Source: Thermoplasmata archaeon | Lineage (GTDB): Archaea; Thermoplasmatota; Thermoplasmata; RBG-16-68-12; JAGMCJ01 | Length of the DNA: 64,000 nucleotides | Reading direction: 5' to 3' | Assembly: GCA_023136265.1 (NCBI GenBank) | Contig: JAGLRN010000017.1 | Coordinates: 7,509-71,508 of the forward strand | Part shown: positions 2,579-62,865 of the stretch, one piece after another | Position numbering within the stretch: the first letter of the stretch is position 1 | How the letters are laid out: each line of letters starts with the position of its first letter | Translations under genes and position numbers: made by a program | The notes under the pieces: model-generated | The model's database searches: none | The model's input: the letters and a program-made list of their open reading frames with translations, nothing else | Told to the model about the DNA's origin: nothing

Positions 2579-3121
2579 ATGACTGAGGACAAAGGGCGGC
2601 TTCTGCTTAGGGAAAGCAGGAAGTGGACAAGAAGGAGGAAGATAGAACTATTGTTCCTTCCTGTTATGCTTTGGTTCCCTGTAATATTCTTTCTCTACAT
2701 GATGATCCGGTATCCTTGGGTATTCTCCCATCTGCATCTGACCCTCTTTCTGATCTCCGTTCCATTCGTTTCTCTGAGTCTCTATGGGGTTTTCATGGCT
2801 GCGAAAGCGGGGCCTCTCAATCTGCACGAAACGGGCATCGATAATTTCCGCGCCGGCCTCCTGAAATGGAAGTTCACACACTTGAGAGAGATCGAAACCA
2901 TAGCGATTCAAGTATTCGGCTCCCAAGTCGTAATCCGCTTCTACGTAAGGAACCCTTGGGTGATACACGTCAATCCCCTCATCCCAGAGAAGGAAGACAG
3001 GCGAATGGACAAGCTTCGGGAGGTAGTTGAAATCATGAAGTCCAAAGGTGTCAGGGCGGGATTCGGAGGCAAGCGTGAGGATTTGGAGTTCTTGGAGAGG
3101 AGGCAAGACAGAAGAGCATAG
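2579..3121 (+). CDS. Hypothetical membrane protein (2 predicted TM helices plus a soluble C-terminal part) in a lower-GC segment
   Basis: ATG preceded by the 22-bp motif. Hydrophobic LFLPVMLWFPVIFFLYMMI and LTLFLISVPFVSLSLYGVF segments. GC3 is about 65%, higher than the overlapping antisense ORF 2648-3256, which also looks protein-like. The call is uncertain. Confidence 0.35.
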   Translation: MTEDKGRLLLRESRKWTRRRKIELLFLPVMLWFPVIFFLYMMIRYPWVFSHLHLTLFLISVPFVSLSLYGVFMAAKAGPLNLHETGIDNFRAGLLKWKFTHLREIETIAIQVFGSQVVIRFYVRNPWVIHVNPLIPEKEDRRMDKLREVVEIMKSKGVRAGFGGKREDLEFLERRQDRRA

Positions 3122-5390: not shown

Positions 5391-6623
5391 TCATATGAGG
5401 GTCGTCTGGAACTTCAGTCGGAAGTTCTTGACATTCGAGAGGAGTTCATCCCTTTCCAGCACCCGTCTCGTCTCGAGCGCAGGGACGCTCGACTGGATCT
5501 CCTTCGTTCGACCTCCCCTTCCGAAGGATTTCACACGGGCACTCACGAGCCCGAGCATGTCGAGTTCGGATATGAGGTCCGTTATGCGTCTCTGCGTCAG
5601 GATGCTCATGCCCGTCCTCCGGCAGAGCTGCTTGTACATGCTGTACACATCGCCGGTCGTCATCCTCGTGGCCCCCATCTCCTCGTTCATGATTATGCCG
5701 AGAAGGATCAGCTTCGATTGCGTGGGAAGCGACTTGACGGCCTCGATGACGCAGTCGAGCTCGAGCTGGTTCTTCGCCCGAAGCACGTGCCTGTCCGTGA
5801 TCTTGTTCTCATTGTTCCTCTCGGCGATCTCGGCCGCGACCCTGAGAAGATCAAGGGCTCTCCGCGCGTCCCCGTGCTCCTGTGCCGCGAGGGCCGCGCA
5901 CAGCGATGTGACGCTTTCGTCGATGACGTCGTCGTCAAAGGCCAGATCTGCTCTCTGACCGAGTATGTCTTTCAGCTCCTCGGCGTTGTACGGAGGGAAG
6001 ACCATCTTCTCGTCGCTCAGTCTGCTTCTGACCCTGGGATCGAGGAACTCCGTGAACTTGAGATCGTTGGATATGCCCAGGATGCTGACCTTCGCCTTCT
6101 TCAGGTCCTCGTTTATCCTCGTCAGATGATAGAGTACGTCGTCCCCGCTCTTGTAGATGAGCTTGTCGATCTCATCGAGTACGACAACCACCACGCGCCT
6201 CTCCTCATCGAGCTTCTCCCTCAGCATGTTGTAGACCCTCTCCGTTGGCCAACCTGTGAAGGGGATCCTCTCGTCGAAGTCCTCGATGAACCTGTTTCCC
6301 AAGTTCTGGAGAACACTGTACTGCGTGTCGGTCACCTCGCAGTTCATGTAGAGGTAGTCGACCCGCGACCACTTCTTCGCCTTCTCCACCTCCTTCTGCA
6401 GGTACTTCACCGTCGCAGTCTTCCCTGTTCCAGTTTTCCCGAATATCAGGACGTTGGAAGGTCTCTCGCCCCTCAAGGCCATCGCAAGGATGGAAGCCAG
6501 CTGCTTGATTTGCCTCTCCCTATGGGGCAGGTTCTCTGGGATATAAGAAGGTCTAAGGATGTCCCTGTCCTTCTTGAAGATAGCCTTCATTGCCAGGTAC
6601 GGCTCGAATATGCTGTCTTCCAT
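5391..6623 (-). CDS. cdc6: Orc1/Cdc6 replication initiator (AAA+ with C-terminal winged helix)
   Basis: Walker A GKTGTGKTAT, Walker B VVLDEID, and typical archaeal Orc1 length and organisation. Confidence 0.9.
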   Translation of the reverse strand: MEDSIFEPYLAMKAIFKKDRDILRPSYIPENLPHRERQIKQLASILAMALRGERPSNVLIFGKTGTGKTATVKYLQKEVEKAKKWSRVDYLYMNCEVTDTQYSVLQNLGNRFIEDFDERIPFTGWPTERVYNMLREKLDEERRVVVVVLDEIDKLIYKSGDDVLYHLTRINEDLKKAKVSILGISNDLKFTEFLDPRVRSRLSDEKMVFPPYNAEELKDILGQRADLAFDDDVIDESVTSLCAALAAQEHGDARRALDLLRVAAEIAERNNENKITDRHVLRAKNQLELDCVIEAVKSLPTQSKLILLGIIMNEEMGATRMTTGDVYSMYKQLCRRTGMSILTQRRITDLISELDMLGLVSARVKSFGRGGRTKEIQSSVPALETRRVLERDELLSNVKNFRLKFQTTLI

Positions 6624-8059: not shown

Positions 8060-10432
8060 GTGCGTATTCCTTTGTATGAGAAAATCTTCGTTACAGCAAT
8101 AGGGGCTTTGTTCCTGACAGGGAGTCTGCTTGCATGTGTGGGAAACATCGCCGATAATAGCGCGGATGATGGAGTCATCATCCAGTCGGGTAGCTATGAA
8201 GGCATTCCATCAGCCGATCCCAATGATGGAAAGTTTGTCTTGATAGCGTCAGCCGTGCATGAAACAATTGAGTCAAAGGTCGTGGCCTATATCGGCATTC
8301 CCGCGAACGAGTCGACGTTCGAGGTGGGTATATTCGACGGCGATGTTGGGCAACATTGGGATTATGTTGGTGACTTGCCAACAAGCTTCACCCTTTACAT
8401 GGACCCGTTGAAGAATGGAACGACCGCCTTATTCGTCGAGAGTTGGAGTAGCAATAGCGGTGTTCTGCCAGATGATGATTGGTACACCGAGTCTTTCTCG
8501 GTCTCTCCCGACGCTCAGGCTCCCAGCGGGAACTACTTCTACAGGCTCGTTGCTGAGTGGGAAGGCGGGACGCCTTCAAGTGGGCTGAACGACTTCAAGG
8601 TCAGGACGACCGGTCAGATTAGCCTTGCAGCTGGTCACGAGTTCGGATTTGCTGGCGGTCCTCAGGCTGGTATCGATCCGGAGTTTGGAACATCGGACAA
8701 CACCTACGACGGCGAATGGTGCTACAACTTTTACGTTCCAATAGCGAAATCCAGAGTTTTCTTCCTCGACGGTGACGCTGACCACATTTACGATACCGAC
8801 GATCCCAACACTCCCAACACTCCCCCTTATGATGAAGGGCAGAATTGGGGGAAGCCTAAGGACGACAATCCGGATCAGAAGTATCGAATCAGTCCGAACA
8901 TACACGTTGTTGTCACAGATCCAGACGGCAACACTTACTTGAACTCCAACCCCTCCGGCAACCAGGAATGGGAAATCTTCAGCATAGGAGACCTCCCCGA
9001 TGATGACTACAGTGTCAACTACTCTTTGTCTCCTGGCCTCTGGAAGTATGAGGTCAAAGGGATGGATGCTCACAACGCCAATTTCCTGGAAACGACATAC
9101 GAGGTCTTCGTATGCGGTTCAACGCCTCCACTTCCTGTGAATCCTCCACCTGAGGTAGAGCCAGACCACGACGAAGACGTGCCTGGAGGCGCAACCTACC
9201 ATTACCCGCACACAGTTACTAACAGGGGTGTCACTCAGGCCTACGACCTCACGGGTGAATCTACTCTCGGATGGTTTGCTGGGATATATGAAGATTCCAA
9301 CGCAAATGGCGTCTACGACGCAGGTGAGCCCGAGGTCGGCATAACACCAGATTTGGACACAAACGGAACCTACTACGTCCTAGTTGCCGTGGACGTTCCT
9401 GGGGGTCCGCCGGGAACCACCGATACGATCTCACTTACGGCGTCTTCTAGAATAGAATGGGCTGTTCAGGACTCAGCCGGCGATGAGATAAGGATAAATC
9501 AACCGCCTGATCCGCATGCAGGAGGTCCCTACCTTGCGGACGAGGGCGATACGGTGACCTTCGACGCTAGTGGCTCGAATGATTCAGACGGAGATCCCCT
9601 GCAATACATGTGGGACATCGATGATGATGGGGTTTTCGAGACCAACTACTCGAGCAGTCCAACATACAGCCATGTATTCGGCGATGACTACAATGGTACA
9701 GCTAGATTGAGGGTAACTGATGGCACCTATGAGGTAGAAGCGTTGTCGAATGTGACGATAGTGAACGTCGCCCCGTCTGTGCTGGGCTACCTCGACTCGC
9801 GCATCCTTACCGGAATCACCTTCCGGATCGCAGGGGAGAAGTGGCACGACGTCGAGTTCTTCCTTTACGAGGACGGAACCGAGGTCGCGTACGCACAAGT
9901 CGTACGTTATCCAGGCAGTCCGGACGATCAGGCCGTCACCTTGTCCGGTCTCAACATATCCCTATCCAGCGAGTACTCCGTCCTCGCACTATACACGCCC
10001 ATGGACGATCCCATAAACGGACAGATATGGGGCTCCACTCCCGCTTGGGTAATCCTGGACTTCGATGACGGTAACGACACGAGGATACATCACACGTTCA
10101 ACGTCATGCACAACGAGACTTGGACGTGGGAGATAGAGAGGTTGAACGAGTACTTCGGGGGTCACAACCTCACGTTCCACGCATCCGCGTATGACCCAGG
10201 AAGCGATGACCTCACCTTCACGTGGGACTGGGACGACAACAGCACAGAGACGCGAACCTACTTCAACAACGGAATTGGTCCTGATCCGTATCCGTCCTCG
10301 GATGTGAATCCAGCCTCAGTAGATGATGTCGCGACTCACTCATTCCCGGGCGGAGGCACGTATGTAGTCACTCTCACAGTGGCCGACGATGATGGTGGCT
10401 CCACTGTCATCACATTTACTGTTAGCATCTGA
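8060..10432 (+). CDS. Large secreted PKD-domain protein, paralog 1 of 3
   Basis: GTG start after gggggagggg SD. Signal peptide with LLAC (possible lipobox). PKD-like segments YMWDIDDDGVFE...VTDG and FTWDWDDNS...TVADDDGGSTV. Long blocks homologous to the proteins at 35631-37624 and 42503-44803. Confidence 0.8.
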   Translation: MRIPLYEKIFVTAIGALFLTGSLLACVGNIADNSADDGVIIQSGSYEGIPSADPNDGKFVLIASAVHETIESKVVAYIGIPANESTFEVGIFDGDVGQHWDYVGDLPTSFTLYMDPLKNGTTALFVESWSSNSGVLPDDDWYTESFSVSPDAQAPSGNYFYRLVAEWEGGTPSSGLNDFKVRTTGQISLAAGHEFGFAGGPQAGIDPEFGTSDNTYDGEWCYNFYVPIAKSRVFFLDGDADHIYDTDDPNTPNTPPYDEGQNWGKPKDDNPDQKYRISPNIHVVVTDPDGNTYLNSNPSGNQEWEIFSIGDLPDDDYSVNYSLSPGLWKYEVKGMDAHNANFLETTYEVFVCGSTPPLPVNPPPEVEPDHDEDVPGGATYHYPHTVTNRGVTQAYDLTGESTLGWFAGIYEDSNANGVYDAGEPEVGITPDLDTNGTYYVLVAVDVPGGPPGTTDTISLTASSRIEWAVQDSAGDEIRINQPPDPHAGGPYLADEGDTVTFDASGSNDSDGDPLQYMWDIDDDGVFETNYSSSPTYSHVFGDDYNGTARLRVTDGTYEVEALSNVTIVNVAPSVLGYLDSRILTGITFRIAGEKWHDVEFFLYEDGTEVAYAQVVRYPGSPDDQAVTLSGLNISLSSEYSVLALYTPMDDPINGQIWGSTPAWVILDFDDGNDTRIHHTFNVMHNETWTWEIERLNEYFGGHNLTFHASAYDPGSDDLTFTWDWDDNSTETRTYFNNGIGPDPYPSSDVNPASVDDVATHSFPGGGTYVVTLTVADDDGGSTVITFTVSI

Positions 10433-33677: not shown

Positions 33678-35561
33678 CTACTCAACCGGTGGTTCTTCCT
33701 TCTTCCTGCGCTTGATGAGCACGAGCACAACCACGAGGGCCGCAACCACCATGAGCGCTATCGCCGCATACAAGACGTAGTCGAATCCCTTGTCATCTCC
33801 TTCATCATCCACGGGCGGATGGCTGTGCGGATCGTCGGGATCGGTCCCGTTCTGATACTCGACGAGGTTGGAGAACCCATCCCCATCTAGATCTTCATCG
33901 GCATCGGAGGGATCCAAGGGATCAAGAGAATTCGAGTGCTCCCAACCATCCGGCATCGTGTCCTCATCGGTGTCGTTGGACAGCGGATTCGTCCCAAGTC
34001 CATCCTCCGTCTCATCGGACAACCCATCACCGTCATCATCCAGGTCGCTGAAGTCTGGCTCACCGTCTCCGTCAGTGTCCAGGATGTCTCCCTCAAAGAT
34101 CTCCGTATGTGAGAGGTTCATGTCGACGCTCCTGTTGTGGTATGCGAAGAACAGAGTGGGGTGAGTAACCGTCACCATCGTGGTATTATGCACTCTCACA
34201 CCGTCTTCGTAGGTCTCGTGGGCAACCGTGACGTCTCGCACGTATCCCTGGACGTTGGTGACGTTGGAGAAAACGGATACACCGTTGTCTGTGATTTCAA
34301 CCGTGACATTATCGACTGGGTCCGACGTCTGGTGCTCGATGGTGTGGACGGTCAAGTAGTTCTTAACGAGGAGATGACAGGCTGGACAACCAGATCCTGC
34401 GGAGACCTTCCCGCCAAAAGTGGAGTTGACCACGACCAGAGCAGAACCTGACTCGAGGAAGAAATCCCTCAACGCCCCACTTATCGTCGAGTTGTAGAAA
34501 GTCGCGTCACCTTCGTAGGCGTACACGCCATCATCCACACCCGATATGTTTGCACCTTCGATGGTGCCAAACGAAGATCCGAGTCTCAGGCCAACAATGC
34601 TGCCTTCCGAGACATCGCCTAGGGACTGAACATTGGTGAAATCCAGGTGGAAGCCCACCTGCTCGTTTCCCCGGGCTACATTCATCCTGCTGATTAAGAG
34701 GCCGCTGCCCCAGGAATAGAAGCCAGCTACGTTATTGATGGCGGTGTTCGCAATCAGGACGGGTTGCGAAACAAAGGACCGCAGTCCATAAGTGTTGCCC
34801 TCCATCGTGTTGTTGCAGATAAGCGAAGTTGAGGATTCTAGTCGTATCCCGTGAGTGTTACTCATGAAAGTGCTGTTCTGGATTGTAACGTTCGTGTTTC
34901 GGACGTATGCACCGTTTTCCGTGTACGCGACCCTCACGTAGTTGAATACTGACGACTCACTGCCTGTGTCGAAGTACACGCCGTCCCAGTCCCCCTTCTG
35001 GGGCTCTGAGGAGTTCGAGGTGAAAATTATCATTTGGTTCCATGACCCCTGAGCGACCAAGGTTCCTGCAACAGAGAGCCTGGTTCCATTGTCAAACGCG
35101 ATAGTCGCTCCCGGATCGATGGTGAGTGTCGCATTAGCACCGACGACCAAATCCCCCTTGACAACCCTCGTGGAAGAGTCCCAGTGGTCGTCCACGACCT
35201 CGAAGGACACATTGTGGTAGAATACGTCAGGAAGCTGTGTATAGCTCGCGTTGACCCACCATGTCCCCGTCTGGTTAGCGGTGTAATTGCTTCTTGCGAG
35301 TCCGCCGTCGTCAGGATCGGATGCCACAGTGTGGACGAGCGAACCGGTAGGGTCGTACCACTGGAAATCCACATCGTTAAGCTCAGATGGCGGCGAGCCC
35401 GTGAAGTTCAGTAGCGCACCCGCCACGACCTTGGATTCGTTCACATAATCCGAGACCACTGTCACGATGTCGCTCACAGTAACAGCTGCTCTCACGTTGA
35501 CGCCGGCGAACGTGCTCGTGACAAGGATTGCCATGATGGTGATGGCAAGGCGGCTTTTCAT
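33678..35561 (-). CDS. Cell-surface right-handed beta-helix glycoprotein with TSP3-like Ca-binding D-rich repeats and a C-terminal TM anchor
   Basis: Signal peptide MKSRLAITIMAILVTSTFAG. More than 25 N-x-S/T sequons. PbH1-like repeats (NNTMEGNTYGLR, ANTAINNVAGF). DTDGDGEPDFSDLDDDGDGLSD repeats. C-terminal LYAAIALMVVAALVVVLVLIKRRKKEE. Confidence 0.75.
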   Translation of the reverse strand: MKSRLAITIMAILVTSTFAGVNVRAAVTVSDIVTVVSDYVNESKVVAGALLNFTGSPPSELNDVDFQWYDPTGSLVHTVASDPDDGGLARSNYTANQTGTWWVNASYTQLPDVFYHNVSFEVVDDHWDSSTRVVKGDLVVGANATLTIDPGATIAFDNGTRLSVAGTLVAQGSWNQMIIFTSNSSEPQKGDWDGVYFDTGSESSVFNYVRVAYTENGAYVRNTNVTIQNSTFMSNTHGIRLESSTSLICNNTMEGNTYGLRSFVSQPVLIANTAINNVAGFYSWGSGLLISRMNVARGNEQVGFHLDFTNVQSLGDVSEGSIVGLRLGSSFGTIEGANISGVDDGVYAYEGDATFYNSTISGALRDFFLESGSALVVVNSTFGGKVSAGSGCPACHLLVKNYLTVHTIEHQTSDPVDNVTVEITDNGVSVFSNVTNVQGYVRDVTVAHETYEDGVRVHNTTMVTVTHPTLFFAYHNRSVDMNLSHTEIFEGDILDTDGDGEPDFSDLDDDGDGLSDETEDGLGTNPLSNDTDEDTMPDGWEHSNSLDPLDPSDADEDLDGDGFSNLVEYQNGTDPDDPHSHPPVDDEGDDKGFDYVLYAAIALMVVAALVVVLVLIKRRKKEEPPVE

Positions 35562-35630
35562 GTGACCAAGACCATGGTTTGCACTATATATTCGTTTCCT
35601 GAATGGCTGGCAAACGGTAGAAGTCCTGGC

Positions 35631-37624
35631 CTACTTGCGGCCAGGGACGAGTCCCCAGTAACCTATGCTGTGCCCATACTCGTTGTTCAGGTGGTCAGCT
35701 ATCTCCGTCGCAGTCGCGTACTCGCCATTATCGTACAGGTCCATCAGGTGGTCCAGCGCTTCCGAGGCCGTCATCTCAGTTCCGTCGGGGAAGGTAACAA
35801 CATCATCGGAACCTACAGTCCCGCTGCCGACGTTGTATTCCCAAGCTGTGATCTGAAGCAGGGCCAACTCCCCCTGGTTGGCGCCTCTGCCTCCCCCTCC
35901 TCCCCCCGTGGGACAGATATCTCCTTCCCCGACCGTAATCGTGGTCGTAACGGTGGCCGAGCCACCATCATCATCGGTTACAGTGAGAGTGACTACATAC
36001 GTTCCAGGTGAGCTGTAAGTATGAGTCTGAGTGTCCTGGACATTGAGCGGCGGAGTAGTTCCGCCGAAGTAGGGCTCGTACGGACTCGAATCGGGATCGT
36101 TAGGCGGCACTCTGGAGGGGTCATAGTAGTAGGTCGTGGTCGTGACGTTGCTACCGTCTCCCCAATTCCATGTGAATGTCAGGTCATCGCTGCCTGGGTC
36201 TGTTGCCGATCCAACGAAGGTCAAAGGCGCACCTACGAGTGCCCCGATGTTGATATCAACGATCCAAGGCTCCACGTGAATGAAGTGCTCGCTGTCCCTC
36301 TCGATGGACTGCTGCACGTTGAAGGTGTGTTTTATCTTGCACTGTCCACCCTCCGCGAAGTCCAGGATTATCCAGACGGGATTGGCTCCCCACAGCTGTC
36401 CGTTGATGGGCTGATCGCCCATTATCGCGTCGTTGAGGTCCTCGTACGGATCGTATGTGACCACCGCGGTATAGTTGACGGAGTCACCCGCATCCAGGCG
36501 AATCGTGATACCCTGGTCCCCAGAGCTTGGATTGAGCATCGGGTCCCCAGGCCACCTCTCTACCTCGATGTTGGCGGCTATGTCATCGTACTGGCCGGTC
36601 TCCCTATCGTAGTTCTCGTAGAGAGTGAGCTCCACATTGTGCCATTTCTCTCCAGTGACTCTCAAGAAAACCGTGACCTCGACGTACGCTCCCTCTATCG
36701 TTGCAGTCGGATCCACATTCAGTACGTCCACATAGCCGAAAGCCGTCCCCGTCAGGCCATCATCATCCGTCACGGTGAGTTTCACTTCGGTGTAGTAGTC
36801 ATCGTACCAGATGAACGTCACGATCGGGCCCGTCGCGTCGACATCGTTGTCGTAGATGCCATCGCCATCACTGTCGACAAACACGTCAAGGTCCCATTCG
36901 TAGCTGACTATCGTGCCGTCAGGGTCGGAAGAACCGGAACCGTCAAGTGTGACCAGATCGCCCTCGTGGATTGTTTCCGGGGTTATGACGATATCAGGCA
37001 CCGGCGGCTCCTCATCCTCGGGTATCATTGCCGAGGAAATGAATGTCAGGTCATGACCGTTCGGGGTCTTGTAACCCGTAACGGGGTCGAACGCGTCGAA
37101 GTGGATCTCGAAGTACTCATCTGGATCTGGGCCCAGCGTCACTGTCGTGTCGAGTCTCACGGTAGTCTTGCCAGGAAGTACCTCAGGCTCGTAGAAGTAT
37201 ATGTCCCAGATTGCTTCGTCTCCTGAGTATACATGATGCTTCCCTCCCCAGGCCTCATCAAACGGATTGAACTCCGTGTTCCCGAAGTCAGGGAGGTATG
37301 ACGCTTCACCCTCAATGTCTATGCTCACAAAGTCATCCGATGTCGTCCAGTTGTGAATCGCAATGGCGATTCTCAAATCGGTGAGATCATCATTTCCTCT
37401 GTTCTCGACAATCATCTCAAAAGTGCAGACAACATCTGGGCCAAAGTCACAATAGGTAACCCACCCACCAGCTTTCCAACCTCCGCCTTTCGCTCTTTCG
37501 CCAGGATCAGCGTTCAGCCAGATGTGGGCACCACCCCCACCGCCTGCAAGAACTGCCGGGAGTAGGGCAAGCATCATCATAGAAGCGCAGGCTAGAGCTA
37601 CGGTTCTCTTCACGTTCTCTCGCA
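35631..37624 (-). CDS. Large secreted PKD-domain protein, paralog 2 of 3, with a distinct C-terminal domain after a GGGGGG linker
   Basis: Start MRENVKRTVALACASMMMLALLPAVLA (ATG about 37624 after a ggaggaaggtg SD); the track ORF is extended to 37919. PKD segments (YEWDLD..., FTWNWGDGS...TVTDDDGGSATV). GEKWHNVELTLYEN block shared with paralog 1. Confidence 0.75.
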
Positions 37625-37650
37625 TGTCTTTCACCTTCCTCCAAACCCCA

Positions 37651-37740
37651 AGAGGCTGTGTCCGCGCCGAGTTGGAGCGTGCGTGTGGGCGAAAAGACGC
37701 CCCTCCTCGACGCCTCGTTGGACAGCCTCCCCCTTTTTTT
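37651..37740 (-). promoter_or_regulatory. GC-rich nested stem-loop element plus A8/T8 tract in the leader region of PKD paralog 2 (possible structured 5' UTR or small ncRNA)
   Basis: gaggctgtgtcc pairs with ggacagcctc, enclosing gggcg-aaaaga-cgccc and gcgccgag/ctcgacgc. It is followed by cccccttttttttg and lies between a TATA-like tatataaaag (37772) and the minus-strand ATG. Confidence 0.35.
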
Positions 37741-37928
37741 GGAAGCTTATGCACTCCACAAATGAGTCTGGGGAGTATATAAAAGCGGACTGGAAACCAT
37801 CCTGAATGATACCACATACCAGGCCATGTACCACGCGGTTGAAATCTGGATTGAGGCATAAAAGCCCAGCCTCGCTCTTCCGGCAATGCGAAAGTAATAT
37901 ATTCGGCGTAGTCAATCATTAGACAAGT

Positions 37929-40460
37929 GTGGGCATGAAATTTCGAGCACTTCTAGTCCTGACGGTCATCATCATTCTGTCCTGTTTTGCGAAGGACGTC
38001 TCGGCAGCCCTGACTGTGACCAACGTCACAGTGACCATGGATCGCTCCACTTTCTATGCCAACCAGTCAACTGCTACTGCAACAGCTGTCATAGAGTACA
38101 CGGCGGGCGCAGCGAAGGATATCGGTGATGTTAGTTTCACTTGGTTCAGACCAGATTGGAGCATAGCCGCCATCAGGATAGACACGGGAAAGGATGATGC
38201 GAACGCCACAAGCGCCATAACGGTCGACATGGGCGGCACATGGCACGTGAACGCCACTTACGTGAACCAAACAGACCAGTTCGACAACGTATCATTTGAA
38301 GTGGTGAGCGCTGGGGTCGTCGTTGTTTCTGACATGGTTCTAGTGGTGAACGCCCCCTATTTCGAATTGGGTGAAACGGTTGTCGCAACTTCGGCTCTTG
38401 ATTACGCAGGGAATGTCAGTCTCTTCGTGGCAGTCGATTTCACATGGATCGACTCCTCGAGCGCAGTTGTGAGGTCGATGAATGTTGTTCCCAATTCAAC
38501 TGGTGTCGCGATAGACACCTGGGGATCCGACAGCGTGGGCCCTTTCCTCATGTATGCGAACTACACGGGAGACGCACCGGTTTCCAGGTCGGTCAGCTTC
38601 GAGGTTTTCCCCACGAGGGTGAGGACCTGGCATAATCTCAGTGTCGTCGTGGATGAGGTCTGGGACTTGGCTGGAGAGCCGTACGGTGTCTGTGAAAACA
38701 TCACAATCGAGGCGGGATCAACGCTCACAATTGAAGCGGGCGTCACCGTGAGATTCTGCGAAGACACTCACATGACCGTGGACGGCGCGCTGGTCTCCGA
38801 TGGATCTCTGGATTCTTTCGTGAACTTCACCGCATTCGGCTTCTTCCCGCCAAAGGGTTACTGGGGTGGCATCATCGTGAACCCCTCCAGCGGTAGCTCC
38901 AGTAGCATCACCCACTCCCGGGTGAGCTTCGCATCAATCGGCATGCTGATAACCTCTGCAAGCCCAACCATCGAGAGAAGCTCGTTCGAGAATATAAGCA
39001 TCGCGGCCATCCAGTTCGATAATGCCACTGCGAATGCTGAGTTCAACTCGTTCGACGATGTCGGCAGAGGGATCTCCGCATCGGCTTCGGACATCGGGAT
39101 GAGGTTCAACACCTTCTCCAACGTCATGATGGGATTGGCCCTGATCGATTCCAACGCCACGCTACACGGAGACACCATCTTCAATTCGACGTCATTCGGA
39201 ATCCACGCATTCAACAGCTCCATTTCCGCTTCCCAGATCAACATCTCGCTCTCCGGCGGTAGCGCGATCAGACTGCAGTCCCAATCGCTTGCGATCATCG
39301 AATCATCTGTCATTGAGAACAGCTGGTACGGTGTCGATGCCTTCTCATCGACCTTCCACGTGAACGAGAGCAGCCTACTCACGAACGACAACGCTGTCAG
39401 GGCGAACGACGGGCAGGGAGACCTGGTTAACACGAGCATCCTCAACTCCGTGGACTTCGACTTCACGTTGGAAGGTGGAAGCTCAGTGATCGCACTCAAC
39501 TGCACGCTCAATGACAGCAAGGTCCAGGTGCTTCCAGCTTCGCGGCTCACCGTGAAGTACTTCTTGGATGTGCAGGTTGCAGACGAGGGTACCGGTGATC
39601 CAATCGGGAACGCCTTTGTGGAGATTCTGGATGATGGCTCCAGTATCTTCTCTTCGAGGACACCTTCGAGCGGCAGGGTGAGATGGATTCCCGTCACTGA
39701 CAGGATATTTGACGGAGCCGACACGCCAACAAAGCACAATATAACGATCAAGATCAGAAAGGATGGATATGACATCGTGGAGCCCGAGAGGACTGTCGAT
39801 ATGTACACATCCCGTCTGGAGGTCTTCCTCGCTACGGAGGCCATTCAAGACATATGGGAGGAGGTTCTCGATCCATTTCTCCTAATGATCCTCTTGATTG
39901 TCATCGCAATTGTGGTCGCCGCCGCCATCATGGTTCGAAGGAGGACAAGGGAGGAAGAGGAGATTGTCCCTGAGAAGAAGGTCCGCAAACCTACTGACTA
40001 CACCCTTAAGAAGGGCACGAGCTATCTTGTCGCTGGGGAGAAACCCGATCTCGCTTTCGGGATATTCTCGAATGCCATCAAAGGCGGAGCTAGCGGACTG
40101 TGCATCACAAGGACGTATCCCGACGAGGTCTCCGAAGAATACGACGTGGGAGATGCCCCGATTCTATGGCTCTCACGAGACTCCAGGCGGGCCAACATTA
40201 GTCCCACGAATTTGGGCGCGATAATCCTTGAGGCGCAGAGGTTCCTCAAGAAGGAGGAGGGCAAGGAGACGATTGTGATGCTCGATGGCATCGAGTACCT
40301 CATCGTCCAGAACGATTTCTCCAAGGTCATCAAGTTCGTTCAGACCTTGAAGGATACGATTTCCGTGGCCGGGTCCAAGCTCCTCATCCCGTTCAACTTG
40401 GCCGCATTGGAGGAATCGAGGCGGGCGTTGCTGACCCGCGACTTGGAGCTATTGGAGTGA
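37929..40460 (+). CDS. Cell-surface beta-helix glycoprotein with a TM segment and a C-terminal cytoplasmic DUF835-like domain
   Basis: Signal peptide MGMKFRALLVLTVIIILSCFAKDVSA. N-terminal domain paralogous to the 33678-35561 protein (TWHVNATY...NVSFEVV). Many PbH1-like repeats. TM LLMILLIVIAIVVAAAIMV. Tail with GLCITRTYP...WLSRD...LDGIEYLIVQNDF...LIPFNLAAL...LLTRDLELLE, matching my recollection of DUF835. Confidence 0.75.
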   Translation: MGMKFRALLVLTVIIILSCFAKDVSAALTVTNVTVTMDRSTFYANQSTATATAVIEYTAGAAKDIGDVSFTWFRPDWSIAAIRIDTGKDDANATSAITVDMGGTWHVNATYVNQTDQFDNVSFEVVSAGVVVVSDMVLVVNAPYFELGETVVATSALDYAGNVSLFVAVDFTWIDSSSAVVRSMNVVPNSTGVAIDTWGSDSVGPFLMYANYTGDAPVSRSVSFEVFPTRVRTWHNLSVVVDEVWDLAGEPYGVCENITIEAGSTLTIEAGVTVRFCEDTHMTVDGALVSDGSLDSFVNFTAFGFFPPKGYWGGIIVNPSSGSSSSITHSRVSFASIGMLITSASPTIERSSFENISIAAIQFDNATANAEFNSFDDVGRGISASASDIGMRFNTFSNVMMGLALIDSNATLHGDTIFNSTSFGIHAFNSSISASQINISLSGGSAIRLQSQSLAIIESSVIENSWYGVDAFSSTFHVNESSLLTNDNAVRANDGQGDLVNTSILNSVDFDFTLEGGSSVIALNCTLNDSKVQVLPASRLTVKYFLDVQVADEGTGDPIGNAFVEILDDGSSIFSSRTPSSGRVRWIPVTDRIFDGADTPTKHNITIKIRKDGYDIVEPERTVDMYTSRLEVFLATEAIQDIWEEVLDPFLLMILLIVIAIVVAAAIMVRRRTREEEEIVPEKKVRKPTDYTLKKGTSYLVAGEKPDLAFGIFSNAIKGGASGLCITRTYPDEVSEEYDVGDAPILWLSRDSRRANISPTNLGAIILEAQRFLKKEEGKETIVMLDGIEYLIVQNDFSKVIKFVQTLKDTISVAGSKLLIPFNLAALEESRRALLTRDLELLE

Positions 40461-40489
40461 AGGGTTTAATATCCGCACACAATTGACCG

Positions 40490-41215
40490 ATGGAAGGCAT
40501 GAAATCATACAGAACCTTCGTCAAAGGCCTCGATGAGGAAATCGAAGGGGGCATCCCCCAGGGTCATGTTGTTCTTATCGCGGGTCCTCCAGGGACGATG
40601 AAGTCGAGCTTGGCGTACAGCATGCTCTACCACAACGCCGCCAAGAAGAAGATTCGCGGCATGTACTTCACGCTCGAGCAGAGCAGGAAGAGTCTAGAGT
40701 TCCAGATGTCTCGTCTGAAAATGGATCCGAAGCTGGTCATGGACACTCTCAGGGTACAGGACCTGTCGAGGATAAGAAAAGGAATAGACGAGGTCAGGGG
40801 AAGACCCAGGTTCGGCAGGGAGGTCGAACGCCCCTGGTTGGAGGTTCTGAAGAAGATTCTCGAGGACATGAGAGATACTGAGAAGTACGAACTCCTCGCG
40901 ATAGACTCTCTGCCCATCCTCGAGATAATCTCAAAGCTCAAAGACAGAAGGATTCAGCTCTTCCACTTCTTCGAGTGGCTCAGGGACCTCGGGCTGACCA
41001 CGTTGATCATCACAGAGACATCACCTCAGATAGGTGAGGTCCACGACGAGGACTTCCTCGCCGACGGAGTCATTAATATACTCATGGAGAAGGTCGGAGA
41101 CATAGATGTCTACCGACGGATAAGGATCGTGAAGCTCAGGGGAGTGAACCACAACACTGGGTTCTTCACGCTCGAGTACAAGCAGGACCGGTTCCAGGTC
41201 TCTCAGGTGATCTAG
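40490..41215 (+). CDS. KaiC-like/RecA-superfamily ATPase with a non-canonical P-loop (AGPPGTMKSS)
   Basis: KaiC-domain layout: GGIPQGHVVLIAGPPGTMKS, FTLEQS, Walker B LLAIDSL. The Gly preceding the P-loop Lys is replaced by Met. Confidence 0.8.
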   Translation: MEGMKSYRTFVKGLDEEIEGGIPQGHVVLIAGPPGTMKSSLAYSMLYHNAAKKKIRGMYFTLEQSRKSLEFQMSRLKMDPKLVMDTLRVQDLSRIRKGIDEVRGRPRFGREVERPWLEVLKKILEDMRDTEKYELLAIDSLPILEIISKLKDRRIQLFHFFEWLRDLGLTTLIITETSPQIGEVHDEDFLADGVINILMEKVGDIDVYRRIRIVKLRGVNHNTGFFTLEYKQDRFQVSQVI

Positions 41216-42444
41216 GGCTCCTCGAAGAGATTCATGTATTTTATCACGGCAAGCTCTTCAGGCGTGTAGTCCTTCCTCTTTTCGAGCCCTTCTAGACCCT
41301 TTGTCGAGATCAGCTTGAACGACAGCGGGTGCCCCTCCGTCAAGCTGAAAATCCTCTCAAACTCCTTCTTCTCGATCTTCCTTTTGAGGAGCTTCTTGCA
41401 GCTCCTCTTGTCAAGCCCATCAAGGATGACCTCGCTAAGCGCCCCCCTCGCGAGCAGTTCCCTTTCCTTCGGTATGTCCCCGTTCTCGGAGATTAATACA
41501 ACCTTGGCCTCCGAGCTCCTCTCGACAACCTGGAGGACGTGATAGAATACCGTCGCCAGTTCAGGGGACATCTCCGCAAGGTCGTCGAAGAACAGCATGG
41601 CACGCGTGTCCTTGAGTCTCGTTGCGAGCGCGCCCAAAGCACTCCTCAGGTCTCTTCCCCCGCCTTCGAGATAGTCGCCCAATCCGGGCTTTCCAAGTTG
41701 CCCGAGGAAGGAAGAGAATGCGCCCAGAAGTGTCTCGGGGGTGTCCCACTGCCTGAAGGAGTACCAGAACAGGTTCAATCGGTTCTTGGACGCCGCATAG
41801 ACACGAGCCGCAAGCGATGACTTGCCCATCCCCTCAGCCCCGCGGATAGCCAGTATCTTGCCCTCAGATGCTTTCGTCCAGTCCTCGATCTCCTCCATCT
41901 CCTTCTCTCTTCCGTAGAACGGTTCCGTGAGAACCAGACCCTCCGCGAAGGACAGGAATCTCTCCTTCTTCTCGGAAGGCCTCATCTCCAGGTCCTCTAT
42001 GTTCAGTATGCCGCTGTCGTCCGTCCTACAGATGACCTCCGTTAGCGTGTGGCGAACCCCGACGTGCTTGTCGATGTCGAGGAGAGAGACCTCCTTGATG
42101 GAATCATCGTCCTTCCGTATCTTCACCCTCTTCTTCAGGACCTCCTCTTTGACTCGCTCGGCGAGACTGTATCCGTCCTCCGTGTAACCGTAGACCTTTC
42201 GCTTCCTCAGCTGTCCTCTCACCCTTCCCATGGCCTCGGTGACCAGGTCCTCCTTCTTCAGCTGAGAGATGGCCCTCGAAACGTGATTGACACGGATGCC
42301 CGTGGAGCCAGCGATGCCCTCCTGGGTGAGCCCAGAATGCACGTCCAGGAGATCCCTCGGCTGAGGAGTCTCCCGCAGATGAAGGATTATCTTCTCCTTG
42401 GCGGTCAGGTCATTCCTAGTGAGCCATTCTCCCCTTTTGACCAT
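41212..42444 (-). CDS. wHTH plus archaeal AAA ATPase (Arch_ATPase/PF01637-like) putative regulator
   Basis: N-terminal HTH (LTQEGIAGSTGIRVNHVSRAISQLKKEDLV), Walker A IRGAEGMGKSSLA, Walker B MLFFDDL. Confidence 0.7.
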   Translation of the reverse strand: MVKRGEWLTRNDLTAKEKIILHLRETPQPRDLLDVHSGLTQEGIAGSTGIRVNHVSRAISQLKKEDLVTEAMGRVRGQLRKRKVYGYTEDGYSLAERVKEEVLKKRVKIRKDDDSIKEVSLLDIDKHVGVRHTLTEVICRTDDSGILNIEDLEMRPSEKKERFLSFAEGLVLTEPFYGREKEMEEIEDWTKASEGKILAIRGAEGMGKSSLAARVYAASKNRLNLFWYSFRQWDTPETLLGAFSSFLGQLGKPGLGDYLEGGGRDLRSALGALATRLKDTRAMLFFDDLAEMSPELATVFYHVLQVVERSSEAKVVLISENGDIPKERELLARGALSEVILDGLDKRSCKKLLKRKIEKKEFERIFSLTEGHPLSFKLISTKGLEGLEKRKDYTPEELAVIKYMNLFEEP

Positions 42445-42502
42445 AATATTCCGAAATCGGATTGGTCACGCCCATTAAAAACCTAACGCTGGTTCCGCGA
42501 GG

Positions 42503-44803
42503 CTAGGGTGCATAGAGGTCCACGGTGACGCTGATGAGCGTCTCACCACCGTCATCGTCAGCGACCGTGATGACCAAGCTGTACGATCCCTCGGCCCAGT
42601 AGGAGTGACTGGCGCTTATCCGTACGTCGAATGGGTAGTTGCCATATGGGCTGTTTGGCGGGTCTGGTGCCAGGCCGTCATTGAAGTACGTCTCAACGTC
42701 GCTTGATCCATCGCCCCAGTCAATGGAGACGATTATGTCGTCACTTCCAGGATCGTGAATGTCAGTAGACAGAGAGACCTCGCCAATCGCGATGTTGTTC
42801 CCGTTGTTGATATCGTCAGCCACCGTCTTCACGTCCTCGAACTCGCTCTCGTTCGTCGAGGTCATGAGGATGTCTTCCGCCCACACAAGGATGTCCCCAA
42901 GGGTCGTTTCGTTCTGTCCGGGAGGCCTTGCCTGCGTCGTGAAGTTCAGCTTCCCGGACGCTACGTTCAACCACAGGGCCATCAACTGACCCTGGGCCCT
43001 GGAGTGCACCTCCTCTCCGGACGCCCATTCGAGCACAGTGCAGACATCATCCTCCGTGCTGACGTACGCGAAGAGGTCGGAGTTCGAGCTTATGAAGAGT
43101 ATCAGGTCATCGGTGATGCCCGTGTGGTTGCCGTAGGGTTCTGTGACGGTGCACTGATGGTTCCAGAAACCCTGCGTCCTGGGCTCGAGTACCGTGACAG
43201 AATAGACGAAGTTCCCTACAGTCGGATCCACGTTCTGCACCAGCAGAGGCACGTCCACGGTTTCCGAGTCCCCGTCATCGTCCACGACCGTGACCTGGAT
43301 TCCGAGGTTGAAGTCATCCCCATAGACATGGGAATCTGCGAAGTCGCCCGTTGCATCAGGTTCCTGGTTCTCTTCGGCGACGAGCGGTGCGCTGGTCTGA
43401 CCGTCGTTCCAGTCAATAAGGGCCGTGTGCGTGTCAAGCCATCCAGGGTCGTAGAAGGTCACGTGGACAGTGAACGATTGCCCCTCATCGATGGTCGACG
43501 GCTGGACGGTGATGGTGTCTATTGTCGGTGCGACATTGAAGCACCGGTAGTGCGTGGTTGTCATATCGCTCATCTCGTCATCGGAGACCTCCACGGTGAC
43601 ATCCGTCTCGTAAGGGCCGTCCCCGCAGGTCAGCTGAACAATTGGAAGAGAGGACCAGCTCGTGTCCCAAGCACCGTCGTGATCAAGGTCCCAGCGGTAC
43701 TTGAGCAGGTCGCCGTTCGGGTCGGAGCTACCGCCCGCATCGAGTAGGATGTCCGCCCCTTCATCCACCTCATACGGACCTCCGGCGTTGGCGACAGGCG
43801 GCTTGTTCACTCTGTACACCTCGATCAGCGGTTTCGCTGAATGGGAGTCATTCGACCCATCGTGGTCCACGTCCGCATATGCCCGCGGCAGGAAGTACCT
43901 TCCAGCCAACAACTTGGGAGTAACGAGCGTGTAGCTCAGCAACACCGTGTGGTATGGCGTGGGAGTCAAGTCATCATGGAAGCTAACGTCCGCCGCGGAC
44001 ACATTGACCTTCCATCTGATCGTCTGCGATCCGTCTGGATTGCCCACAACGGCATCAGGTGCCGGAACGATGGACCCCGGAACGTAGGAGTAGCCCATTG
44101 GAATAGTGTCCTCGATCACCGAGTTCACCGCGTGTGGGGGATTCGTGACACCCGGCCCGTAGATGGCCAGATTGGTGACAGTGAGCGTGATGGTGATGTT
44201 GTGGTTTATGGCATCCTCGACGTTCTTCCACAGAGGGGTCTTGCCCACAACGAGCGTAGGATGCAGGTCGAGGTAGTCCCATATCTCGTCGTTCGTGGGG
44301 TTTGGACCCTGAGCGATCTCCTGAAGTGCATAGGGCATTATCTCTCCCCCGAGGAAGATCGTAGCGCCATATTGGGTCCACTGCCTGTGTTCTGTGCACC
44401 ACCACACGATCGACCCTGGAGGCGCACCATCGCCGTACTCGTAGTCTAGGTAAGAATACGGGTCTACGACGGCACTCGTCAGAGCTCCATCCTGAGTCGT
44501 CTGAGGATTCCAAGATTCCAGGGGATGAGGACTCAAGAGCATCATCATCTCGTTTATGTTGACCTTGATGCTTCCGGAATTGGTCACCCTGAACACCGAC
44601 GGATAGCCGTACTGATTGACCTCCGACGTGATTTGGGCCCATCCTTTGGCGTAAGCTTCCCAGATCTTGATCATGTCAGGCATAGGCTGAGGTCCCAATG
44701 GGTCCTCCAGTCTCGCACTCGGTTCGGTTGCGGGTTCCGACACTGCGATCGCGGACGAAAGTAGCAGTATCGCGAACACCGACATCGTGGCGATTTTCTT
44801 CAC
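42503..44803 (-). CDS. Large secreted PKD-domain protein, paralog 3 of 3
   Basis: Signal peptide MKKIATMSVFAILLLSSAIAVSEP. PKD segments (KYRWDLDHDGAWD..., IDWGDGSSDVETYFNDG...ITVADDDGGETL). C-terminal block homologous to paralog 1. Confidence 0.8.
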   Translation of the reverse strand: MKKIATMSVFAILLLSSAIAVSEPATEPSARLEDPLGPQPMPDMIKIWEAYAKGWAQITSEVNQYGYPSVFRVTNSGSIKVNINEMMMLLSPHPLESWNPQTTQDGALTSAVVDPYSYLDYEYGDGAPPGSIVWWCTEHRQWTQYGATIFLGGEIMPYALQEIAQGPNPTNDEIWDYLDLHPTLVVGKTPLWKNVEDAINHNITITLTVTNLAIYGPGVTNPPHAVNSVIEDTIPMGYSYVPGSIVPAPDAVVGNPDGSQTIRWKVNVSAADVSFHDDLTPTPYHTVLLSYTLVTPKLLAGRYFLPRAYADVDHDGSNDSHSAKPLIEVYRVNKPPVANAGGPYEVDEGADILLDAGGSSDPNGDLLKYRWDLDHDGAWDTSWSSLPIVQLTCGDGPYETDVTVEVSDDEMSDMTTTHYRCFNVAPTIDTITVQPSTIDEGQSFTVHVTFYDPGWLDTHTALIDWNDGQTSAPLVAEENQEPDATGDFADSHVYGDDFNLGIQVTVVDDDGDSETVDVPLLVQNVDPTVGNFVYSVTVLEPRTQGFWNHQCTVTEPYGNHTGITDDLILFISSNSDLFAYVSTEDDVCTVLEWASGEEVHSRAQGQLMALWLNVASGKLNFTTQARPPGQNETTLGDILVWAEDILMTSTNESEFEDVKTVADDINNGNNIAIGEVSLSTDIHDPGSDDIIVSIDWGDGSSDVETYFNDGLAPDPPNSPYGNYPFDVRISASHSYWAEGSYSLVITVADDDGGETLISVTVDLYAP

Positions 44804-52567: not shown

Positions 52568-52897
52568 ATGAAGATGCTTCTTATGGATGCGATAAGGAAG
52601 TTCAACGAGAAGGCAGAGACCGATGACAAACTCAAGAAGGAGCTGGAAGGAATCACAAGAAAGATTCAGGTCGATGTGACCGACGGCGAGGGCTACAACT
52701 TCGTCCTCGAGGACACGCGCGTCTCGGATCTTCGTGAAGGCGAGATCGAATCTCCCGACATCGTAATCACCGCGAGCACCGAGACGTTCACGGCGCTTCT
52801 GACAAAGGAGATGGGTCCGATGAAGGCCATCGCCACGAGGAAGTTGAAGATGAAGGCGTCCCTAGAGGATATGTTCAGGCTGCGGAAATTCTTCTAA
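52568..52897 (+). CDS. SCP2 sterol-carrier-like domain protein
   Basis: 109 aa with the C-terminal MGPMKAIATRKLKMKASLEDMFRL motif typical of SCP-2. Confidence 0.55.
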   Translation: MKMLLMDAIRKFNEKAETDDKLKKELEGITRKIQVDVTDGEGYNFVLEDTRVSDLREGEIESPDIVITASTETFTALLTKEMGPMKAIATRKLKMKASLEDMFRLRKFF

Positions 52898-52944
52898 CAC
52901 AAGACGATAGCTTTATTTCTCTCGAATGTTTCCTATCCTTTGAT

Positions 52945-53053
52945 AGCGGGGTGGGGTAGCTAGGAAATCCCGTCGGGCTCATAACCCGGAGATCCCTGGT
53001 TCAAAGGCGCTCGGTGTCGCAGGGCACGAGCACTGAAAATCCAGGCCCCGCTA
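52945..53053 (+). tRNA. Initiator tRNA-Met (CAT) with a ~34-nt intron inside the T-loop
   Basis: Acceptor agcgggg/ccccgct (A1:U72). Anticodon arm cggg-ctCATaa-cccg (three G:C pairs). T-arm cctgg-ttcaaa[intron ggcgctcggtgtcgcagggcacgagcactgaaaa]t-ccagg. Discriminator A. The intron carries an internal gctcg/cgagc hairpin. Confidence 0.6.
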
Positions 53054-62727: not shown

Positions 62728-62812
62728 GCCGAGGTGGCCCAGTCTGGTAAGGCGCGAGCCTGGAGAGCTCGTGGTGCTTTGCACCTCGGGAGTTCGAATC
62801 TCCCCCTCGGCG
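62728..62812 (+). tRNA. tRNA-Ser (GGA)
   Basis: Acceptor gccgagg/cctcggc. Anticodon arm cgagc-ctGGAga-gctcg. Long variable arm ggtgc/gcacc. T-arm gggag-ttcgaat-ctccc. Confidence 0.7.
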
Positions 62813-62865
62813 CTTTTCTACTAGTAAATATCAAATACGGGTAATACGATAGGCCTTCGATAAGA

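Follow-up and report, generated by a model that had tools for sequence, protein, structure and literature searches.

Does a tRNA gene whose T-loop is split by 34 nucleotides encode a working initiator tRNA, and would its maturation call for a splicing endonuclease of unusual specificity? Both questions are raised by a locus on contig JAGLRN010000017.1 of a Thermoplasmata archaeon, which we analysed within a 64,000-nt stretch of that contig (the window, to which all coordinates refer unless another locus is named). Position 59/60 of the tRNA has been named among the non-canonical sites of archaeal tRNA introns (PMC4090602), and introns at such sites track the (αβ)2 and ε2 classes of endonuclease (PMC4090602, PMC3239211, PMC5829648). 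Part of the Euryarchaeota, including the Thermoplasmata, has been described as possessing α'2 enzymes with strict bulge-helix-bulge (BHB) specificity and only canonical 37/38 introns (PMC4090602; PMC5829648). Some authors restrict cleavage by the α4 and α'2 enzymes, the types to be expected in Thermoplasmata, to the canonical position (PMC3239211, PMC4090602).

Results

An initiator tRNA gene interrupted within the T-loop

On the plus strand, positions 52945-53053 read AGCGGGGTGGGGTAGCTAGGAAATCCCGTCGGGCTCATAACCCGGAGATCCCTGGTTCAAA, GGCGCTCGGTGTCGCAGGGCACGAGCACTGAAAA and TCCAGGCCCCGCTA, corresponding to the first exon of a tRNAiMet gene, an insert and the second exon, respectively (Table 1). The acceptor stem is formed by AGCGGGG (52945-52951) and CCCCGCT (53046-53052), with A52945 and T53052 providing the A1:U72 pair and A53053 the discriminator A73; the CCA end is not encoded. 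The anticodon CAT (52980-52982) is located in the 7-nt loop CTCATAA (52978-52984), and three G:C pairs (29-31:39-41, GGG/CCC) close the anticodon stem. Between the two strands of the T-stem, the T-loop starts as TTCAAA (53000-53005), is interrupted by the 34-nt insert and resumes with T53040. The insert itself contains a hairpin made of GCTCG (53009-53013) and CGAGC (53027-53031). The features named in the original prediction, which was made from the letters of the DNA, are all present, and its claim of a non-canonical intron in the T-loop of an archaeal initiator tRNA is borne out, with the insert placed between tRNA positions 59 and 60.

Removal of the intron in silico leaves a 75-nt molecule that ARAGORN identifies as a tRNA-Met(cat) with a normal cloverleaf. 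In this predicted spliced product, ...GGUUCAAA is joined directly to UCCAGG..., which gives a T-loop of seven nucleotides, UUCAAAU, and its 42 nt at the 3' end recur unchanged in 22 uninterrupted tRNAiMet genes of other archaea found in metagenomes. The window contains no second CTCATAACCC initiator anticodon arm, and the gene is free of overlapping ORFs of any weight on both strands.

Table 1. Exons, intron, predicted splicing motif and associated elements of the tRNAiMet locus, with the D-loop introns of related loci
Feature	Coordinates	Strand	Remarks
5' exon, tRNA positions 1-59	52945-53005	+	acceptor 5' strand, D-arm, anticodon arm, variable loop, T-stem 5' strand, T-loop 54-59
3' exon, tRNA positions 60-73	53040-53053	+	U60, CCAGG T-stem 3' strand, CCCCGCU acceptor 3' strand, A73
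34-nt BHB intron, position 59/60	53006-53039	+	sequence GGCGCTCGGTGTCGCAGGGCACGAGCACTGAAAA
Putative archaeal promoter	52906-52919	+	BRE-like cGATAg and TATA-like TTTATTT (52912-52918); from sequence reading and comparison
Outer helix h (T-stem), 5' strand CCUGG (CCTGG in the DNA)	52995-52999	+	pairs with CCAGG, 53041-53045; invariant in alignment A1
Central helix H, 5' strand UUCA, T-loop 54-57	53000-53003	+	pairs with 53034-53037
Central helix H, 3' strand UGAA (intron)	53034-53037	+	complement of T-loop UUCA
5' bulge A58-A59-G (intron nt 1)	53004-53006	+	predicted 5' splice site 53005/53006
3' bulge A-A-U60	53038-53040	+	predicted 3' splice site 53039/53040
Intron hairpin h'	53007-53033	+	MFE folds; three pairs with compensatory changes in A1
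tRNAiMet loci of relatives with a D-loop intron	L014 3680-3790; L156 about 2680-2790; L157 about 2668-2778		also L117, L025, L045, L051, L109, L077, L083 and L132 (5' halves)

The exon-intron junction forms a strict bulge-helix-bulge

Folding of the exon-intron junction shows that a BHB-type structure does form. Its geometry is 3-4-3 and of the hBHBh' type, in which the T-stem serves as a 5-bp outer helix h, two bulges of three nucleotides each flank a central helix H of 4 bp, and the intron folds into an inner helix h' of 1+5 bp. The 3' end of the intron carries exactly four nucleotides complementary to T-loop positions 54-57, in the register of the splicing motif. Helix h' opens with the pair G53007-C53033, followed by a C53008.A53032 mismatch, the GCUCG/CGAGC stem and an apical pairing of UGUC (53015-53018) with GGCA (53023-53026). 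With a lone G-C pair and then a mismatch at this end of h', the closure of the 5' bulge is looser than in the textbook motif. The motif nevertheless belongs to the strict hBHBh' class, its h' being slightly imperfect through the C.A mismatch. The need for relaxed BHB recognition that had been put forward for this intron thus falls away, since the junction has its two 3-nt bulges, a central helix of 4 bp and a flanking helix on either side, and the relaxed forms HBh', hBH and BHL are rejected on the same grounds.

The minimum-free-energy (MFE) fold keeps the cloverleaf and extends the T-arm as the T-stem, a 6x6 internal loop and the intron hairpin. In the nearest-neighbour model, the BHB conformer has an energy of -43.8 kcal/mol, compared with -48.2 kcal/mol for the MFE structure with the internal loop; this poorer energy is as expected, because the model penalises bulges. 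The fold of the T-arm together with the insert has a z of -3.05 relative to shuffled sequences.

In the canonical 37/38 case, the intron pairs with loop nucleotides 32-35, and the splice sites lie in the bulges (PMC4090602). By analogy with that case, we place the cuts after the second nucleotide of each bulge, which removes exactly 34 nt and restores the 7-nt T-loop. The T-arm with its 59/60 intron can in fact be regarded as geometrically equivalent to an anticodon arm bearing a 37/38 intron: the motif and the predicted EndA/RtcB processing are the same, and in both arms a 5-bp stem carries a 7-nt loop in which four stem-side nucleotides pair with the 3' end of an intron inserted between loop nucleotides 6 and 7. 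This mirroring of the 37/38 geometry is probably the reason why site 59/60 recurs. The difference is one of location, the intron of the window being in the T-arm, where it interrupts the loop that docks on the D-loop.

The intron and its motif are conserved among Thermoplasmata relatives

The gene and its intron are identical in 10 independent assemblies (NCBI, ENA, Logan), except for a single C-to-T change in the apical loop of the intron in one assembly, and this recurrence makes an assembly artefact highly unlikely. A relative named 'Thermoplasmata archaeon b1.sp2_bin.58' (L011, the same as L041), whose FtsZ is 89% identical to that of the window, has all 75 exon nucleotides unchanged (75/75) and has kept the BHB core; its intron measures 38 nt with a different apical hairpin, and the flanks of the gene have diverged. 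Homologous introns of 40-41 nt occupy the same site in seven more species representatives of the Thermoplasmata, of which three bear the label Methanomassiliicoccales, and the range among the Thermoplasmata relatives is 34-41 nt.

In an alignment of 10 Thermoplasmata sequences (A1), 98% of the cells of h, H and h' are in standard pairs, compared with 12-59% when the partner strand is slid by 1-3 columns. Both sides have changed in three pairs of h', and H varies only from U-A to U.G. Judged by this pattern of substitutions, the BHB structure is maintained by selection among the relatives. The second pair of h' (53008/53032; A1 columns 14/45) is unpaired in nine of the 10 sequences, as C.A, G.G, A.G or A.A, and the tenth sequence, L132, has U and A at this place; the unpaired position is a quirk specific to the clade. 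A strict-pattern search of the JGI metagenomes returned no uninterrupted tRNAiMet of the clade, in a collection that is incomplete, since the JGI-derived L014 was missed as well. A looser pattern returned 22 uninterrupted tRNAiMet genes from the same metagenomes, all belonging to other archaea.

Some relatives also carry an intron of about 28-40 nt in the D-loop of their tRNAiMet, after GGAA and before AUCCC; it occurs by itself in some of them and alongside the T-loop intron in others (Table 1). The window and L011 have the T-loop intron only; L014, L156, L157 and L117 have the D-loop intron only; and L025, L045, L051, L109, L077, L083 and L132 have both. This mosaic implies that introns have been gained or lost among close relatives, and the SCP2-tRNA-FtsZ synteny is common to L014, L156 and L157, whose FtsZ proteins are 71-74% identical to that of the window. 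The D-loop intron of the L025 type forms a 3-4-3 BHB (UAGG/CCUA, AAA bulges) that has no outer helix h. At L014, L156 and L157, H is imperfect, with three of four pairs including one G.U. Going by their predicted pairing, these D-loop motifs possibly depend on relaxed recognition.

Position 59/60 of the initiator tRNA is occupied across archaea

One genome per GTDB species was scanned with the pattern CTCATAACCC-N11-GTTCRAA-N{12,42}-TC-N5-CCCGCTA, which retrieved at least 119 loci. Among the matches listed, at least 100 are archaeal tRNAiMet genes with an insert of 17-42 nt after TTCAAA, and 19 are bacterial oddities or false matches. By their labels, the archaeal matches listed come from Bathyarchaeia, Micrarchaeota, Asgard archaea (Thor, Loki/Prometh, Hermod, Njord, Borr), Woese-, Aenigm- and Nanoarchaeota, Nitrosopumilales, Nitrososphaera, Desulfurococcales, Ignisphaera, Thermoproteales, Hadarchaeia, a Thermococci MAG and Thermoplasmata. 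The tRNAiMet exons and introns of five loci labelled 'uncultured Methanosarcinales' (L020, L027, L034, L061 and L118) are almost the same as in the Woesearchaeota MAGs L073, L080 and L094 (e.g. L034 and L073), which suggests mislabelled or contaminated bins; the taxon labels of the survey are therefore to be read loosely.

We analysed the motif in a set of 101 genes, composed of 100 archaeal matches listed and the gene of the window. Intron nucleotides -6 to -3 from the 3' junction form all four pairs with T-loop positions 54-57 in 72 of the 101 genes and three of the four in another 25, whereas shifting the register by 1 to 3 nt to either side yields 0-3 of 101. This complementarity in the required register, together with the z of -3.05 of the fold in the window, places the T-arm insert beyond chance. 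Throughout the set, the first bulge is always AAN, the second is NNU, and H is formed by UUCA with UGAA, UGGA or UGAG. The first position of h' is paired in 96% of the genes and the second in 85%, in contrast to the mismatch found in the clade of the window. The matches listed thus share with the window the gene, the site and the H helix, whereas their introns are unrelated to its intron outside the motif, except within Thermoplasmata. A T-loop intron in an initiator tRNA had been presented as notable in itself, a view that cannot be upheld for a published site at which at least 100 archaeal species carry a tRNAiMet insert.

Two kinds of bacterial locus were retrieved by the same pattern. In Chloroflexi/Anaerolineae MAGs (L023 262+, L028 4905+, L059 4784+, L067 944+, L070 4625-, L078 551- and L116 4931+), a 3' portion resembling tRNA-fMet extends from the anticodon loop through CCCCGCTA, with a hairpin insert of 18-20 nt in the T-loop, a terminator-like hairpin after it and no tRNA 5' half before it. 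Rfam gives no match at these pieces, which may be att-site remnants or tRNA-derived small RNAs. In the bacterial MAGs L015, L026, L055, L056, L084, L095, L110, L113 and L129, the tRNA-fMet 3' end is repeated, either in tandem or as a duplicate a few bases further downstream, probably through assembly artefacts or integration-site duplications.

Promoter and genomic context

The tRNAiMet gene has an SCP2-domain gene (52568-52897) on one side and, on the other, a zinc-ribbon gene, after which come FtsZ and the exosome gene cluster. The motif cGATAnCTTTATnT / GATAnCCTTAATAT stands about 27-40 nt upstream of the mature tRNAiMet 5' end (~30 nt in the window) and recurs at a matching distance 5' of the orthologous gene in 13 relatives; it is likely to represent a BRE/TATA promoter common to the clade. 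A scan for sigma-70 promoters and intrinsic terminators, a type of scan unsuited to an archaeon, was empty. The slot between SCP2 and FtsZ holds the initiator gene in all relatives examined. Locus L013 (FtsZ 78% identical) begins within the zinc-ribbon gene and does not reach the tRNA, and at L158 (RBG_16_68_13) the synteny is absent, with no initiator anticodon arm near FtsZ.

The proteins encoded in the window include the PolD small subunit, Orc1/Cdc6, an ATP-dependent DNA ligase, FtsZ, proteasome alpha, SBDS, exosome subunits, Rpp14 and Cbf5, and the best named relatives of FtsZ are from 'Thermoplasmata archaeon' MAGs. All genes between 53115 and 62667 are on the plus strand and encode a multi-zinc-ribbon protein, FtsZ, RNase P Rpp14/Pop5, proteasome alpha, SBDS, Rrp4, Rrp41, Rrp42, an EMC3/TMCO1-like protein and Cbf5. 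This run is the conserved archaeal exosome gene cluster, and a tRNA-Ser(GGA) gene (62728-62813) comes after Cbf5. Both GC and AT skew turn strongly positive from about 52 kb, which matches the onset of the same-strand run. At the other end of the window, the genes for the PolD small subunit (252-1763, +) and Orc1/Cdc6 (5391-6623, -) are less than 6 kb apart and may mark the neighbourhood of a replication origin. Several very large predicted surface proteins (PKD, beta-helix/NosD, DUF835) are clustered on both strands at 8060-10432 and 33678-44803.

Discussion

Taking into account the geometry of the motif, its conservation and the known EndA/RtcB pathway, from which we infer splicing, ligation and function, we consider it very probable that this locus is a functional initiator tRNA-Met gene with a strict BHB intron at position 59/60, predicted to be spliced by EndA. 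A precursor transcript of about 109 nt plus a short leader would fold with an extended T-arm, in which the T-stem acts as h, U54-A57 pair with UGAA as H and the remaining intron forms h'. EndA would cut both bulges behind their second nucleotide (53005/53006 and 53039/53040), and an RtcB-type ligase would join the two exons. Trimming of the ends by RNase P and a 3' nuclease and addition of CCA would then give a 75-nt tRNAiMet with the T-loop UUCAAAU. This tRNAiMet would be charged with Met and used by aIF2 in initiation.

The alternative that survives best concerns the enzyme. In line with the mechanism of the original prediction, it holds that the intron is spliced only through a broad-specificity endonuclease, with a CSL/ASL/L3-type loop or an architecture other than α'2, and that an ordinary euryarchaeal α'2 enzyme would refuse a T-loop site with an imperfect h'. 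The restriction of α4 and α'2 enzymes to strict BHBs at the canonical position, as given in the reviews, speaks for it, as does the conservation in the clade of the mismatch at the second pair of h'; moreover, the D-loop introns of the relatives, which lack h at L025-type loci or have an imperfect H at L014, L156 and L157, suggest a tolerance of relaxed motifs. We nevertheless regard this explanation as unlikely. A motif in which the two bulges are present, H is perfect over 4 bp and h has 5 bp needs no relaxed recognition, and BHB motifs outside anticodon arms are also processed in archaeal pre-rRNA and pre-mRNA (PMC5829648), from which it follows that BHB recognition is independent of the anticodon arm. 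For these two reasons, no unusual enzyme need be invoked. Nor is there positive evidence for an unusual EndA: phmmer with the M. jannaschii enzyme (a query identical to 1A79 over 171 residues) finds no EndA in the window and the part of the retrieved loci that was searched, and Pfam scans find no EndA, RtcB or archease among 39 ORFs scanned in the window. At the level of the clade, we would suggest, quite tentatively and with more doubt than conviction, that a family-level group of uncultured Thermoplasmata with one or two non-canonical tRNAiMet introns has a broadened endonuclease (a new loop or architecture), or that a plain α'2 enzyme routinely processes non-canonical sites in vivo.

The annotation tools could be taken to indicate that the gene is dead. 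The unspliced gene is called neither by ARAGORN, with or without -i, nor by Rfam at the gathering threshold, and the only tRNA that they report in the window is the tRNA-Ser at 62728-62813; at E<=10, Rfam gives a 17-bit partial tRNA match on the unspliced gene that ends at the T-loop. These missing calls would fit a disrupted pseudogene, that is, a copy inactivated by the 34-nt insertion while a working initiator tRNA is encoded elsewhere. This is very improbable, however, for a gene whose exons show 100% conservation from the window to L011 amid diverging flanks and a diverging intron apex, whose BHB is in exact register with compensatory changes across relatives, whose promoter motif is conserved, and whose syntenic slot is filled by the initiator gene in every relative examined. 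The missed calls reflect tools that are blind to T-loop inserts, not the absence of the gene, and stem from the location of the intron in the T-arm. In tRNAscan-SE 2.0, non-canonical introns are sought by default (PMC8450103). Because ARAGORN and the Rfam tRNA model miss the gene, the genomes of this lineage would be scored as having no initiator tRNA, an essential molecule, except in archaeal searches that take introns into account.

The 3' halves of tRNA genes are common attachment sites that are often duplicated, and several bacterial matches to the survey pattern are tandem duplications of a tRNA 3' end. Even so, we give a practically negligible probability to the insert being left over from an integrated element or being an artefact of assembly or chimera formation. 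Its 34 nt contain an exact splicing motif, neither an Rfam family nor a group I or II intron is detected in it, the gene is identical in 10 independent assemblies from different projects, and each exon occurs once in the window. The single occurrence of the 5' and 3' exons in the window also leads us to reject an att-site duplication. Group I and II introns of tRNA genes are hundreds of nucleotides long and contain a ribozyme core, and a self-splicing intron of this kind is rejected for an insert of 34 nt with no Rfam match. Box C/D guide RNAs hosted by introns, as in the tRNA-Trp type, have RUGAUGA and CUGA in an intron of about 60 nt or more. This possibility is rejected as well: RUGAUGA is absent from the 34-nt intron, and its CUGA (53033-53036) overlaps the UGAA strand of H (53034-53037).

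The functional, spliced gene that we favour has close counterparts among known systems. In ARMAN-2 (Ca. Micrarchaeum acidiphilum), pre-tRNAPro(GGG) has a 59/60 intron with a strict hBHBh' motif, and pre-tRNACys(GCA) has a 59/60 intron of the hBH form that is cleaved in vitro by the ε2 EndA (PMC3239211). The T-loop site 59/60 is the same as here and, for tRNAPro, so is the strict 3-4-3 geometry with the T-stem as outer helix. The ARMAN-2 introns, in contrast, interrupt tRNAPro and tRNACys in a DPANN archaeon rather than the initiator tRNA in Thermoplasmata; the 34-nt intron of the window has a longer hairpin than theirs, and its cleavage is predicted. Another counterpart is the permuted tRNAiMet of Thermofilum pendens, which has its junction at 59/60 together with a 37/38 intron (PMC3218864). 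The tRNA species, the break point and the BHB processing are those of our locus, whereas the parts of the gene in the window are collinear and separated by an ordinary intron, with no permutation and no 37/38 intron.

Position 59/60 is thus known already as a non-canonical site, and the arrangement described here is correct but not unusual; the T-loop intron of tRNAiMet reveals no new mechanism. What is new, and mildly so, is the host lineage, the Thermoplasmata, where reviews expect only canonical 37/38 introns. Position 59/60 of tRNAiMet is a recurrent insertion point across archaea, probably either ancient or repeatedly reused. The present locus adds the Thermoplasmata to the lineages with non-canonical tRNA introns and has a modest bearing on the proposed co-evolution of intron diversity and splicing-endonuclease type.
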